Shown: positions 1 through 47,304, counted from the stretch's first letter. The stretch is 64,000 nucleotides of DNA from Eledone cirrhosa (GCA_964016885.1 OZ024741.1:159650001-159714000); one strand, 5' to 3'. Notes: a model not told the origin generated them from the sequence alone. Program-made: numbers and translations.

Positions 1-510
1 TATATATGAAGACGGCGTATATATGTGTTGGTATGTATATTTAATCTTGATAATTTGTATAATTTTGTATAATTTTGTACATAGATCTGTTGAATATGCA
101 TACCAATTCTAACACATATATATCCTAGAAACGATCGTTAAATAATGAACTTTTTTTGTTTAATATAAGGAATTGTTTATTCATTATTTGTTTAATATTT
201 TATCTTGACTCTGTATACCGTTTATCTTTCACCGAAAGTGATTTTTCATTACATCTCTTCTTTCCATGATATCCGGAATACATTGAGTTCTTCATACGGA
301 TTGGACACTACCGTAAACTCTTGGTAGATTTATCTACATATATATATATATATATATATATATATATATATATATATATATATATATATATATATATATA
401 TATATATATATATATATATATAACGAAGGAAATGTGGTAAGGAACCAGGTGGACCATAACGCACCAAAGTACTCAATAGGGTAGTAGAGTGGGTAATAGG
501 AACCAGTAAG

Positions 511-604
511 ACCCCGACGGCTGAGCTCAAGCCGTTTCGACGGCTAATTTTGGACTAAATGAAAATTTATCCTGGTATTTAAATAGCCGAGCTTCTCAAG
601 AGGT
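511..604 (-). ncRNA. Type I hammerhead ribozyme, U3:A8 core variant (family A)
   Basis: Near-exact reverse complement of 1647-1740, differing only inside loop II. Confidence 0.7.
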
Positions 605-1646
605 AATTCCATATATGGTCAAAGTGATTGTCACAAGGATTGGTCACAAGTTAGTAGTAATTCTGTGATGGCAAATTAGTGGGGGAAGGGGTAGCTAAAC
701 CTGCCAGTAGGAGAAAAAAGGGGAGGGGGTGGAGTAGACCCATTCATGCGTTGGTGGTGCCGGCTACAGCTGGGCGTGAGGTCAAAGAAGATACTAGGGA
801 GGGGGAGGGGGAGGAAGTCGAAACGGTAAGTAGAACAATGAAGGGTAAAAATATACTGAGAGTGAAGCGAATAAATGTAAAGAAAAAAAAAATAAAATAA
901 GCAATTTCTACGACCTAAGTCTCTCGCTATTGCTAGGCTAAATAAATAAATAAATAAATAAATGAATAAATAGATAAAGAAATAAAAAAATAATAAATAA
1001 ATAAACTAGGTGGGACGGAATAGGAAAGGACCCTTTTAAGAGGTATAAGTACGTATATCATACAGTGACGGGTCAACAAAGGGGGGCCAAAATACTAAAG
1101 AAACTACCACGAAATAATTAATAAAGGTTTCTACCCAGGGCACAAGGCCAGCAACCACCCAGTGCAGAAAAGTAAACTAGTACGAAATAATAATTCAGAG
1201 TCCCGAAAAAATATACTAATGCTAACTCTAAGGGTACCGCCACGCTACAAAAGTTCTTATACAAGCTACATGAATTTATTTATTTATTTATTTATTTATT
1301 TATTTATTTCTTTAGCCTAGCAATAGCGAGAGACTTAGGTCGTAGAAATTGCTTATTTTATTTTTTTTTCTTTACATTTATTCGCTTCACTCTCAGTATA
1401 TTTTTACCCTTCATTGTTCTACTTACCGTTTCGACTTCCCCCCCCTCCCCCTCCCTAGTATCTTCTTTGACCTCACGCCCAGCTATAGCCGGCACCACCA
1501 ACGCATGAATGGGTCTACTCCACCCCCTCCCCTTTTTCTCCTACTGGCAGGTTTAGCTACCCCTTCCCCCACTAATTTGCCATCACAGAATTACTACTAA
1601 CTTGTGACCAATCCTTGTGACAATCACTTTGACCATATATGGAATT

Positions 1647-1740
1647 ACCTCTTGAGAAGCTCGGCTATTTAAATACCAAGATAAATTTTCATTTAGTCCA
1701 GAATTAGCCGTCGAAACGGCTTGAGCTCAGCCGTCGGGGT
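1647..1740 (+). ncRNA. Type I hammerhead ribozyme, U3:A8 core variant (family A)
   Basis: ACCTC-TTGAGAA-GctCGGCTA..loop..TAGCCGtC-GAA-ACGGC-tTGAGCTCA-GCCGT-C-GGGGT. Stem I is ACCTC/GGGGT, extendable by GGAA/TTCC. Stem III is ACGGC/GCCGT with a palindromic loop. Predicted GUC cleavage after 1735. Confidence 0.7.
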
Positions 1741-1813
1741 CTTACTGGTTCCTATATATATATATATATATATATATATATATATATATATATATATATA
1801 TATATATATATAT

Positions 1814-1938
1814 AACGAAGGAAATGTGGTAGGGAACCAGGCGGACCATAACGCACCAAAGTACTCAATACTTAGGGTAGTAGAGTGGGTAATAGGAACG
1901 AGTAGGAGCTCAGCCGTCGGGGTCCTACTCGTTCCTAT
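1814..1938 (-). mobile_element. Mini fold-back copy of family A
   Basis: Same tail as 422-500, plus a 16 bp inverted repeat ATAGGAACGAGTAGGA/TCCTACTCGTTCCTAT; flanked by (TA)n. Confidence 0.75.
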
Positions 1939-2142
1939 ATATATACATATATATATTTATTAATACAATAACAGAGATAGCTTAACACTAAACTCCGACT
2001 GGTAACCATCTCACTCAACAAACATTAGGTTATATGTTAGTATAACCCAATTTAAGTGTTTGGGGTGCTAACTATATGTATTTTGTGGAAAGCCAGTTGT
2101 ATTATTTTATGAGATATAATTAAAGTTAAAATATATCTCTCT

Positions 2143-43773: not shown

Positions 43774-44383
43774 TTGCTGCTGTTATATTTTTGTTGTTAT
43801 TGCTGTTTTTTTTTATCGTTGTACAGCTGGTTTCCATTTGACACGGTTTCGCATACCAACTGGGTCAAATTAGTAAGGACCAATGTACTAATATTACCAC
43901 TGAGAAATCGATTGATTTGCAATGGCCTTCACCTTCTGACCCTCAGGGGACGGAATGAAGACGGGCACTGCACAACATTGCAATACTCGCTCCCCATGGT
44001 ACAGAACTGCAATTGATGTTCCTGTTGTTTGTATTGAGTTGCTCTCCACCACCATCACTACCACCACCACCATCACTACCACCACCACCACCACCACAAT
44101 CACAATCACAACAATCACTACCACCACCACCACCACCACCACCACCACCACTACCACCACCACAACAATCACTACCATTACTACATCCACTCCCGTCAAG
44201 CAGCCCCACACACAAAACACATCACTCCTACCCCCAGTATCTCAGTCAATGTCTGTCTGTGTGTCTACACCTTTAACCAATGACTTTTATTAGTACAAGT
44301 GACAGTTACTAATCACCGCAGAACAAACATTTAGACTGTCCAGGTTAAAGATGGTAGATTCTGTGACTATTTAGTAGTTTCAC

Positions 44384-44955
44384 TGGTGGTGGTGGTAGTG
44401 GTGGTGGTGTCGGTGGTGGTGGTTGTGGTGATGGTCGTGGTTGTAGTGGTGGTGGTGTCGGTGGTGGTGGTTGTGGTGATGGTTGTGGTTGTAGTAGTGG
44501 TGGTGTCGGTGGTGGTGTTTGTGGTGATGGTCGTGGTTGTAGTGGTGGTGGTGTCGGTGGTGGTGGTTGTGGTGACTGTAGGGGTGGCGGTAGTAGTGGT
44601 GTCGGTGGTGGTGGTTGTGGTGATGGTCGTGGTTGTAGTAGTGGTGGTGTCGGTGGTGGTGGTTGTGGTGATGGTCGTGGTTGTAGTGGTGGTGGTGTCG
44701 GTGGTGGTGTTTGTAGTGACTGTAGTGGTGTCGGTGGTGGTGGTTGTGGTGATGGTTGTGGTTGTAGTGGTGGTGTTTGTGGCGTCTGTAGTGGTGTCGG
44801 TGGTGGTGGTTGTGGTGATGGTCGTGGTTGTAGTGGTGGTGGTGGTGTCGGTGGTGTTTGTGGTGACTGTAGGGGTGTTGGTGGTGGTGGTTGTGGTGAT
44901 GGTCGTGGTTATAGTGGTGGTGGTGACGGTGGTAGTAGTGGTAGTGGTGTTGATG
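44384..44955. repeat. GTG-based minisatellite with ~48 bp unit, flanked by CAC-polarity tracts
   Basis: Unit GTGGTGGTGTCGGTGGTGGTGGTTGTGGTGATGGTCGTGGTTGTAGTG repeated with variants. Confidence 0.88.
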
Positions 44956-45057
44956 GTAGAACCACTTCTACCCCACGGCACCACTACAAGCACTATCAAC
45001 ACCAACAACAAAACTACCACTATCTGCACCACCACCACCACCACACATATATATATA

Positions 45058-45925
45058 CTAGCAGCAGTACCCAGCGTTGCCTGGGTAGGTAAAATAATAT
45101 CTGCTTTGATGAAAAGGTGTTGATCTTAGCAACTGCGAGTTTCTTGAAAATCGGTCGTAAGGTGTAGCAAATGGCGAAATGTTGAGTGAAATCGTATGGA
45201 ATATGTGGGAGGTGGAAAAAAATCGTATTTTGAAGAGTTAAACGGCTGCCAAGCCGTCCCTGAATAAAAAATGTAAAGTGTAAAGCTACTATAAGATGTG
45301 CAATGATAGGTTCTATCGTAGTATAAAAGTTGAACCAAATAAATTGATGTATGTGTGAGGTGGAGCCGAAGTTTCGAATTTGAACGAAATCGGTTGAAAA
45401 ATGTGGGAGCTAGAGCCGAAAAGGCGGATATTTGAGCGAAAAGGTGGTATTTCGAATAAAAAATCTAAAATGTAAAGCCACTTTAAGACGTGAAATAATC
45501 ATATCTAGCGTAGTGTAATTTGAACAAAGTAGGTTGATTAATGTGGGAGCTAGAGCCGAAAAAGTGGAAATTTGAGTTAAAAAGTGGTAATTTTGAATAT
45601 TTAAGCGGCTGCTACGCCGTCCCTGAACAACAAATGCAAAATATAAATTCTATTTTTCTTTAAAATTTGAACGAAATCAGTGGCAAAATGTGGGAGCTAG
45701 AGCCAAAAATCTTATTTTTCGATACCTAAAAAAAGGTGACCCCCTATAGATTTTTATCTGCAGAATGACCCCGCAATAAAAAAAACGATACGCTGATATA
45801 TAGAAAACACTCCCCGATGACTAATCTATGAGCCTGTAAAGTTTCATGAAAATCGGTCGTAAGATGTAGGCCCCTATAGGTAATACACAGACACACATAC
45901 ACACACACTTAATTTTATATATATA
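45058..45925 (-). mobile_element. Non-autonomous Helitron-like element
   Basis: Minus-strand 3' end has the hairpin TACCCAGgcaacgCTGGGTA (45068-45087) just before CTAG|T. The 5' end TATATATAAAATTAAGTGTG merges into (TA)n. Internal subrepeat ATGTGGGAGCTAGAGCC occurs three times. Confidence 0.72.
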
Positions 45926-47093
45926 TATATATATATATATATATATATATATATATATATATATATATATATATATATATAAGTATAAAATGAATAAAAA
46001 TAACCTGTATTAAATTACATTAAATTATTTAATTGATTTACGAACGTTTTTATCAATACAGTAAGAAAAGCACATATAAACACGCATATCTGATGAGATG
46101 TCCAAACAGAGTCGGGGCCCGTCATCTTGATTGTACCCTGAGCTGATCGATATCGAAAAAATTGTAATATACCAATAAAGTTTGTACACATGCTGCAACA
46201 CTGTCTTCAATTCTTATAAATCTATTTATGCCCTGGGAACTACAGCCGTCTTAACTCTGGAATACAACCCAAACGAGACGGACCTCATAACAGCATTGAA
46301 TGCTTCGAATGGTGCGCCAAGAGAAACTGTTGTTACACACCTACACACACACACACACACACACACACACACACACACACACACACACGCACACACACAC
46401 ACGCACACACACACACACACACACACACACACACACACATATATATATAATATATATATATAAGAATAACATAAAATTAAAAAAAATACTGATGTTACAC
46501 AAATCGTTTATTCATTATAATCATTTCAACGGTTCCCTTATGCAATCCATAACGTATGCATTTGTTTTTGTTATGGGAATGTTTAACAGACACCCTTCGT
46601 CACACATTGTTCAATTTAAATGCATATTTAAGTTGTCAACGGTACATATCGGTTACATATACGTTTTCGTCTTGAAAAAACAAACAAACTCCAGTGCAGT
46701 TTTTAACTGTCTTGTTAGACTCCGTAGCTGCGAATGGACAAATAGTTCCATCGCTAGGACAAAACTGTGTGCGTCTATTTCAACAGCCAGTTCTACAATA
46801 TTATAGGTGACGCACAAGACCCCTACCCCCGTTGAACATATAATTCTATACGTATTTGTCTCTGATAGGTTAATTGAGGTATGTTTTTTTCGTTTTCGCA
46901 TTGAAAAAGAATCAGGACAGTGTTTAACCGCCCTGTTAAACACTGTGACCCTGAATGGATTAGTAAAAAGGTCGTTAAGTGTTGAGTCAGTGGGTATTTC
47001 CATTTCAACGGCCGTTGACCATGGAGTTTGTAAGATGTTGGAAATTTTGCTATATATATATATATATATATATATATATATATATATATATAT

Positions 47094-47304
47094 ATAGGAA
47101 CCAGTAAGACCCCGACAGCTGAGCTCAAGCCGTTTCGACGGCTAATTCTGGACTGAGAATTCTGGAGTCCAGAATTAGCCGTCGAAACGGCTTGAGCTCA
47201 GCTGTCGGGGTCTTACTGGTTCCTATTATCCACTCTACTACCTCAAGTATTGAGTACTTTGGTGCGTTATGGTCCACCTGGTTCCTTACCACATTTCCTT
47301 CGTT
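47094..47304 (+). mobile_element. Mini fold-back copy of family A (61 bp arms, 47094-47154 and 47166-47226)
   Basis: Perfect inverted repeat plus the family tail; flanked by (TA)n. Confidence 0.8.

Follow-up and report, generated by a model that had tools for sequence, protein, structure and literature searches.

One-tailed fold-back insertions in Eledone cirrhosa, probably formed by two-ended priming of a likely Penelope-like retrotransposon

How does a mobile element come to leave two copies of its own end lying head to head, with a tail on only one of them? This question is raised by a stretch of 64,000 nucleotides from the octopus Eledone cirrhosa (GCA_964016885.1 OZ024741.1:159650001-159714000; hereafter the window), in which four short insertions, here termed family A, each consist of two inverted arms of which just one carries a tail. 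Family A likely represents the pseudo-long-terminal-repeat (pLTR) end of an endonuclease-bearing (EN+) Penelope-like retrotransposon (PLE) with a (TA)n target, although this assignment is not proven, and each copy is best read as one 5'-truncated insertion that was probably generated by twin priming on RNA of a single source.

The four copies (A1, 422-1755; A2, 1814-1938; A3, 38351-38497; A4, 47094-47304), with lengths of 1334, 125, 147 and 211 bp, were recovered by word-7 BLASTN at the same positions as in an earlier note on this DNA, and with the four regions as queries no fifth copy was found in the 64-kb window. In element-sense orientation, all eight arms can be aligned to a single reference. 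In each of the four copies the inverted arm ends at the identical base, GTTCCTAT running into (TA)n, and the opposite arm extends to CCTTCGTT(AT)n, again with an identical end base, as the earlier note had claimed for both ends. The stretch of the opposite arm beyond the fixed inverted-arm end constitutes the tail, which spans 78 nt in A2-A4 and 74 nt in A1, where it has a 4-nt gap. All eight outer ends are bordered by (TA)n, so that target-site duplications are unreadable, and the fixed end is uncertain by 3 nt because TAT could be target-derived.

The identity between the arms is far above chance (E=0 for A1; 61/61 for A4). The arm length of 61 nt given for A4 in the earlier note stands, whereas the A1 arms (496-978 and 1275-1755) measure 483 and 481 nt rather than about 460 nt and are 98.1% identical, differing by seven substitutions and two one-base indels on either side of a 296-nt single-copy spacer. 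Likewise, the 16 nt noted for A2 and A3 represent the mirror overlap only (16/16), since the inverted arms are longer, with 33 and 55 nt, and the loops of 15 and 37 nt are continuations of these inverted arms. The tail arms of A2 and A3 begin at one identical base and each junction exhibits a 2-nt overlap. The 11-nt loop of A4 has no match to the continuation of either arm in A1 and may be filler, as it is similar to a short stretch of the arm end copied a second time. The A1 spacer is probably a continuation of the tail-side arm, which it resembles in the T-richness of its minus strand, but the C/G skew disagrees and the attribution is weak. No open reading frame (ORF) is present in the A1 arm or spacer, or in any other family A copy, and the whole predicted hammerhead is retained in A1 only, so that most copies would be dead on arrival.

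The layout is not confined to family A. Masked self-BLAST and a scan for exact arms identified five more fold-backs between TA tracts (C1, C2, B, D1 and D2; Table 1), making nine insertions in one window. The B insertion includes an ORF whose product has a GIY-YIG domain at the C terminus (Pfam E 3.4e-6) and shares 55-60% identity with the best four of 8 longer proteins, two of them confirmed to carry RVT_1 and GIY-YIG, and the protein homology begins at the inverted-arm junction. A CX4CXXC motif precedes the nuclease, an arrangement described for Neptune/Nematis (PMC8557442). With its GIY-YIG ORF and its fold-back, B thus links this kind of layout to an EN+ PLE of the same genome. In addition, B contains a partial tandem with direct pLTRs at 60337-60461; none is seen in family A, where the copies are too short. 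When 8 PLE homologues were compared with the window by tblastn, matches were obtained only at 39515-40714 and 58966-59610. A PLE insertion at about 38972-40738 has no inverted arm.

Exactly one tail is present in each of the nine insertions (9/9). If each end chose independently, the probability of this pattern would be at most 0.5^9 = 0.002, or 0.004 if A2 and A3 are counted as one event. The exact-arm scan, which omits D2 (low-complexity filter) as well as A1 and B (above the loop limit), returned eight short palindromes, seven of them PLE-type, and no tail-less or two-tailed forms between TA tracts. The inner ends of the arms are 3-37 nt apart in seven of the nine insertions, 296 nt apart in A1 and about 1.5 kb apart in B. 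Which arm owns the sequence between the inner ends is readable in A1, A2, A3, B and D1 only: in A2 and A3 this sequence is part of the inverted arm and in B part of the tail arm, while in D1 the 4-nt loop appears to belong to the inverted arm, where it would complete stem I, and in A1 the owner is probably, if weakly by its skew, the tail arm. The proximal end, that is, the fixed end of the inverted arm, overlaps the (TA)n target by 3 nt in family A, 4 nt in C2, 2 nt in D1 and 6 nt in D2, with rough chance backgrounds of 0.07, 0.07, 0.21 and below 0.07, respectively; the overlap is ambiguous in C1.

The fixed ends can be placed relative to a predicted type I hammerhead ribozyme. Both A1 arms match a descriptor in which any Watson-Crick 3-8 pair was allowed, with stems I, II and III of 5, 7 and 6 bp; the canonical CUGANGA pattern missed family A, and the match required the exchange of C3-G8 for U3-A8. 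After dinucleotide shuffling of the A1 sense sequence (853 nt), 0/3000 sequences matched, or 1/3000 with a loose descriptor. Cleavage is predicted after C17 (1735); relative to this site, the inverted arm ends 20 nt downstream and the tail at +94 to +98 nt. In both the minimum free energy (MFE) fold and the constrained folds, stem I is extended by pairing of 1641-1646 with 1747-1752, and since this distal helix ends at 1752, the inverted arm stops 0-3 nt past the stem base; the earlier note had put the end about 20 nt beyond the cleavage site and at this base, and both placements are borne out. The coincidence with the hammerhead base does not generalise, being true for A and D1, fold-dependent for C and not evident for B. 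The 5' half of the hammerhead is missing from A2-A4.

The two arms of an insertion also agree in sequence where the insertions differ. Family A contains three arm sites that vary between insertions, and each is concordant between arms (3/3). The variant GCTGTC occurs in both arms of A4 and is confined to that insertion, whereas CTCGTTCC and the linked TCCTAC occur in both arms of A2 and both arms of A3; thus, the earlier note was correct that these variants are shared within insertions, but in A2 and A3 they are subfamily variants rather than private ones. C1 and C2 differ at 1/67 arm sites, with each carrying its own allele in both arms, and by 4 substitutions and 2 gaps in 89 positions of the tails. 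Concordance therefore extends to all four informative sites (3/3 in A, 1/1 in C). Random re-pairing of the family A arms gives full concordance in 2/24 cases (0.083), or 0.042 with family C included. A4 exhibits its own changes at 3/78 tail positions and 0/61 differences between its arms (Poisson p=0.009 if post-insertion), so that either its variants were already present in the template or its arms have since been homogenised. The claim of the earlier note that both arms derive from the same RNA template is thereby supported only in the sense of a same source haplotype (4/4 sites, p about 0.04-0.08); at the level of single molecules, one RNA, two RNAs of one locus, arm-to-arm copying and later homogenisation of the hairpin fit the window alike.

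We suggest that these regularities reflect two-ended priming. In such a scheme, the GIY-YIG endonuclease would cut both strands within (TA)n, as shown in vitro for another PLE (PMC11167929). One DNA end would prime at the distal site, which has its end point fixed at +94 to +98 nt relative to the cleavage site. The other would prime at a proximal site (+17 to +20) that coincides with the stem I base and has a short TA-like match to the target. The tail would correspond to the stretch between the two sites, each of which would be used once, on RNA of one source locus and probably on one molecule. The proximal cDNA would lead and the distal cDNA follow by strand displacement, and both would stop early, usually near each other. 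Repair would then join the cDNA 3' ends via the 1-2 nt microhomology or short filler present at the junctions, followed by fill-in, with the outcome being a head-to-head palindrome with one tail and with arms of one source haplotype. Two separately truncated cDNAs explain extra sequence on the inverted arm (A2, A3) as well as on the tail arm (B), which a snap-back of fixed polarity fails to do, and two cDNAs ending on one RNA would also fit the distance of at most 37 nt between the inner ends in 7/9 insertions. The 2-nt overlaps in A2 and A3, together with the 2-6 nt TA-like overlaps at proximal ends, resemble the junctions of L1 twin priming (PMC11702581, PMC2912911). The earlier note's proposals of descent from a PLE, of a pair of fixed priming sites and of truncation to variable extents are thus well supported, but they had already been published for PLEs (PMC3846280, PMC8557442, PMC11167929).

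Several observations weigh against this reading. By tblastn, no ORF in the window is linked to family A, and its PLE assignment therefore rests on the layout and the ribozyme. As to the ribozyme, Rfam reports no hammerhead family in 400-2000 or 1630-1756, even with E values up to 10 allowed, an alternative MFE structure is 2.1-2.8 kcal/mol more stable than the active fold, and the ribozyme does not stand out by its thermodynamic stability (z 0.10 and -0.40, about 0). In B, the proximal end neither overlaps TA exactly nor lies at an obvious hammerhead base. The sample comprises nine insertions from one window, the concordance reaches a p of only 0.04-0.08 and the A1 arms differ at 9/483 positions. 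Furthermore, start sites were used in vitro with no difference between strands and the priming was termed non-homologous (PMC11167929), and double copying of one RNA stretch would demand strand displacement.

The short loops are predicted equally by self-priming (PMC3846280), in which one strand, either antisense RNA or the first cDNA, folds back to serve as its own template, and a staggered resolution of the hairpin base by the endonuclease then leaves the tail on one arm. Such an origin was proposed for head-to-head PLE palindromes (PMC3846280), with the tail attributed to resolution by the endonuclease (PMC8557442), and it accounts directly for the concordance, since shared variants arise when one arm serves as the template for the other; loops of 3-37 nt in 7/9 insertions and the equal-length arms of A4, C1 and C2 are likewise in its favour. 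Nevertheless, we consider self-priming unlikely, given that loop ownership is mixed between the inverted arm (A2, A3) and the tail arm (B), that the fold-back stems would have just 1-2 bp in A2, A3 and D1, that the 1.5 kb between the B arms is hard to obtain by local fold-back, and that tail ends in vitro correspond to reverse transcriptase (RT) start sites rather than cut sites (PMC11167929). A hybrid may also operate, in which two primed ends are bridged by the snap-back of either cDNA.

Independently templated arms could instead have been made alike afterwards, by hairpin-driven template switching or gene conversion. Arm mismatches do fall in the predicted direction, with 2/366 in the short-loop copies compared with 14/840 in the two long-loop copies, but loop length has no significant effect (Fisher p=0.17, or 0.53 when substitutions alone are counted), the arms of A1 agree at the three informative sites despite their long loop, and the fixed ends and the one-tail rule are left unexplained, which makes this route very unlikely. 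The fixed base also speaks against a fold-back artefact of sequencing or assembly, a concern because all copies lie between (TA)n tracts, which are self-reverse-complementary and error-prone. Fold-backs in reads mirror everything outward, whereas here the mirror ends at a family-specific base; given also the one-sided tail, the unique flanks, the 9 differences between the A1 arms and the recurrence of the pattern in four families and in the literature, we attach almost no weight to an artefact.

Two of the family A copies may nonetheless have a further history. In a full-length alignment, A2 equals A3 minus one 22-nt block, which has a 2-nt direct repeat at its bounds and covers a 6-bp hairpin, plus three substitutions. 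The 125-150 bp copies could thus be progeny of a miniature fold-back master moved in trans, with A2 derived from an A3-like unit by slippage past the hairpin, in which case A2 and A3 would not be independent integration footprints. This reading covers those two copies only and is compatible with twin priming as the origin of the master. The single 22-nt gap, the shared start base of the tail arms and the two shared diagnostic variants speak for it, the (TA)n target would conceal the 5' junction of such a copy, and non-autonomous PLE derivatives are known (PMC8557442; 10.64898/2026.07.22.740005). It remains tentative, somewhat short of an even chance, as there are only two copies, the shared start lies 4 nt from the predicted cleavage site, where the same start could arise twice from a cleaved RNA or from stalling of the RT at stem I, no nested palindromes of the kind that second priming on re-mobilisation might give are present, and the junctions of C1 and C2 differ. 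The hint of a mobile mini-unit comes down to one piece of sequence support, namely that A2 is A3 minus a 22-nt hairpin with the same tail-arm start. A bolder version, which we consider unlikely, would have an RT dimer prime both ends on one RNA and copy one stretch of it twice, with one subunit per fixed site imposing the strict one-tail rule. Some of the 125-210 bp palindromes would then spread in trans and make up a miniature family devoid of the ribozyme, in which A2 descends from an A3-like master and which would be a retro-analogue of miniature inverted-repeat transposable elements (MITEs). If true, such a family would seed the genome with perfect hairpins.

MITEs themselves are non-autonomous class II elements of uniform length with terminal inverted repeats at both ends. 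This identity was rejected for family A, where the inverted repeat is subterminal on the tail side and the lengths are 125, 147, 211 and 1334 bp. Rather, family A shares four features with PLEs, namely a (predicted) pLTR hammerhead, an inverted 5'-truncated copy, a tail at one end and a microsatellite target; the copies are truncated within the pLTR or untranslated region and have no ORF, and PLE membership is therefore likely, not proven. An inverted 5'-truncated pLTR, a junction palindrome, a one-sided tail and a microsatellite target have already been described for PLEs (PMC3846280, PMC8557442). Indeed, Pen2a of Adineta vaga and other EN+ PLEs exhibit the same head-to-head copy, junction palindrome, one-arm tail and simple AT-rich repeat target (PMC3846280; PMC8557442, Fig. 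2 legend), but family A consists of the pLTR end only, with 125-1334 bp and no ORF, and its tail of 74-78 nt exceeds the 30-40 nt of PLE tails (PMC8557442). In Poseidon PAc of Anolis carolinensis, two RT start sites bound the tail and both target strands are cut and extended in vitro (PMC11167929), so that it shares with family A two fixed sites 3' of the hammerhead as well as an AT-rich target. The PAc sites, however, are found inside the ORF (111-118 nt into it), were described as non-homologous to the target and were used in vitro without preference for either strand (PMC11167929). The proximal site of family A, by contrast, is located 20 nt past the cleavage site and matches TA over 3 nt, and in all fold-backs of the window (9/9) each end has a site of its own.

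The hammerhead also has close relatives. PLE hammerheads include the U3-A8 variant and pairs on opposite strands 100-700 bp apart (PMC4209133), and family A has the same type I fold and U3-A8 core as the PLEs of Schistosoma mansoni, the dual opposite-strand motifs and mostly truncated copies. Compared with the minimal dimer type (PMC4209133), it has a full 6-bp stem III, which would make it monomer-competent by prediction, a long stem II and a hairpin that buries GAAA. Animal non-LTR retrozymes are similarly short, non-coding, pLTR-related and furnished with a type I hammerhead (PMC7229834; 10.64898/2026.07.22.740005); this assignment was rejected, as family A is head-to-head rather than head-to-tail and three of the four copies do not have a whole hammerhead. 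L1 twin priming likewise involves internal priming by the second DNA end on the same RNA, microhomology and head-to-head end joining, but there the second priming site has no constant position and adjoins the end of the first cDNA, which leaves the pieces with hardly any overlap (PMC2912911, PMC11702581). In family A, the second site is fixed beside the first start, with the result that the same stretch is copied twice and a palindrome is formed. An L1-type 5' inversion was rejected on the arm overlap of 16-483 nt and the lack of poly(A), the mode of action alone being alike. Family A would therefore be a new PLE family, ordinary in kind, that is seen through truncated inverted insertions, and the layout itself is not new.

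Table 1. Coordinates of family A, its predicted hammerhead and the other fold-backs in the window
Feature	Position	Strand	Description
A1 tail	422..495	-	74 nt; ends in (TA)n at 421
A1 tail-side arm	496..978	-	483-nt pLTR, element sense on minus; hammerhead core from 599, C17 at 516
A1 spacer	979..1274	-	296 nt, single copy
SINE-like piece in A1 spacer	1114..1166	+	53 nt, 81% similar to the 5' end of the short interspersed nuclear element (SINE)-like repeat
A1 inverted arm	1275..1755	+	481 nt, tailless; fixed site into (AT)n
Predicted type I hammerhead	1641..1752	+	Descriptor match; stem I 1641-1651/1736-1752; core UUGAGAA 1652-1658 (U3-A8 variant); stem II 1659-1712; GAAA 1713-1716; stem III to 1734; cleavage after C1735
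(AT)n tract, A1-A2 interval	1756..1813		58 nt; target of A1 and A2
A2 tail-bearing arm	1814..1907	-	78-nt tail + 16 nt; start 4 nt 3' of predicted cleavage site
A2 inverted arm	1906..1938	+	33 nt across the cleavage site; 2-nt overlap with tail arm, 1906-1907
A3 inverted arm	38351..38405	-	55 nt; 2-nt overlap with tail arm, 38404-38405; 6-bp hairpin (-6.7 kcal/mol), not in A2
A3 tail-bearing arm	38404..38497	+	16 nt + 78-nt tail; start base as in A2
A4 inverted arm	47094..47154	-	61 nt
A4 loop	47155..47165		11 nt
A4 tail-bearing arm	47166..47304	+	61 nt equal to inverted arm + 78-nt tail with 3 own substitutions
C1	47495..47726		Arms 67-68 nt, identical; 4-nt loop; one-sided tail
D2	51045..51156		Relative of D1; arms about 19 nt; 3-nt loop; one-sided tail
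C2	58134..58509		Family of C1; arms 139/140; 14-nt loop; one-sided tail
B	58607..60845	+	Inverted 356-nt pLTR 58607-58962; 5'-truncated RT-thumb/GIY-YIG ORF to 59622
B, 3' part	60450..60805 (pLTR)	+	Same insertion; partial tandem pLTR, then this pLTR and a 40-nt tail
D1	60865..61035		Arms 46/47; 4-nt loop; canonical CUGAUGA...GAAA core; one-sided tail

Within the hammerhead of A1 (1652-1735), the 3' strands of stem II and stem III both read AGCCG, which gives rise to a competing hairpin that hides GAAA and may constitute an on/off switch of the ribozyme. The A4 variant changes a G-C pair of stem III to G-U. In the MFE prediction for 422-640 on the minus strand, the tail pairs back over 7 bp with the equivalent of 1633-1640, just upstream of stem I, thereby enclosing the hammerhead and placing the proximal start site at the junction. 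A hammerhead-like motif of family C (58430-58500, 47659-47726), read by eye where the descriptor gave no match, is present in all four arms and has A at position 4 and U-U at 10.1-11.1; the D1 hammerhead likewise has U-U at 10.1-11.1. Across the whole window, Rfam returned no matches at the gathering score, with a sub-threshold Hammerhead_3 match at D1 only (18.2 bits, cut-off 48.5). Four more minimal type I hammerheads on the minus strand (39173, 41703, 47840 and 50205), three of them with a palindromic loop 3, would mark other PLE ends. Remnants of PLE ORFs are present at 39479-40726 (GIY-YIG) and probably at 49084-49458 (no Pfam match).

Tail similarity between insertions exceeds that of shuffles for only four of 21 pairs (A3-D1, A3-D2, D1-D2 and C1-C2). 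A 14-nt motif around ATTGAGTAC is common to the A and D tails (38420-38497, 60962-61035 and 51088-51152; 13/14 with D2) and was equalled in 4 and 17 of 2000 shuffles, with 21 pairs tested; it is a candidate for a conserved protein-binding element. A candidate fold-back at 49749-49908, with 20-nt arms, a 37-nt loop, a one-sided extension of ~85 nt into (AT)n and a left end in (TAAA)n, was left out of the nine, and inverted arms of 49 nt surround a (CA)n/(TG)n core at 50785-50976, where the left extension resembles 125-150. The insertions cluster, with A2 in the TA tract beside A1, C1 190 bp from A4 and D1 about 20 bp from B, which suggests that a TA tract split by one insertion attracts the next.

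The remainder of the window is rich in repeats. A GT-rich satellite of the GGTGTT type, with a 9-bp period and an extreme strand skew, occupies 15 kb at about 3500-18520; its frames are open for about 5000 codons but it is probably non-coding, and an inverted block flanks it at 3059-3610. A near-intact long interspersed nuclear element (LINE) at 19481-24705 encodes a 587-aa ORF1 and a 1163-aa ORF2 with apurinic/apyrimidinic (AP) endonuclease, RT and zf-RVT domains, and a 3' fragment of a LINE, 78% identical, lies at about 52313-52876. Copies of the SINE-like repeat are found near 26957-27155, 27635-27844, 43313-43448, 43553-43774 and 51596-51798, including two inverted pairs within 1 kb; the repeat may resemble those of octopuses.

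What the window adds to the published mechanism is modest, namely a small set of quantifiable regularities and the hint of a mobile mini-unit. In the literature covered, which included few subscription papers and those cited in part, no published test of arm haplotype agreement, loop ownership or tails per insertion was found, nor a report of recurrent miniature PLE palindromes. These regularities bear on the origin of the inverted structures of PLEs, for which self-priming was the earlier proposal (PMC3846280) and where the in vitro study ends before second-strand synthesis and joining (PMC11167929). With some nine scars from several families per 50 kb of non-satellite sequence, such a genome would offer a cheap test of twin priming against self-priming, the discriminating measures being the number of tails per insertion, the arm that owns the loop and the agreement of arm haplotypes. 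D1 gave sub-threshold matches to microRNAs in Rfam. Should the mini-units recur, they would constitute a new non-autonomous form of PLE, one that repeat pipelines are likely to mislabel as MITEs or microRNA-like hairpins.

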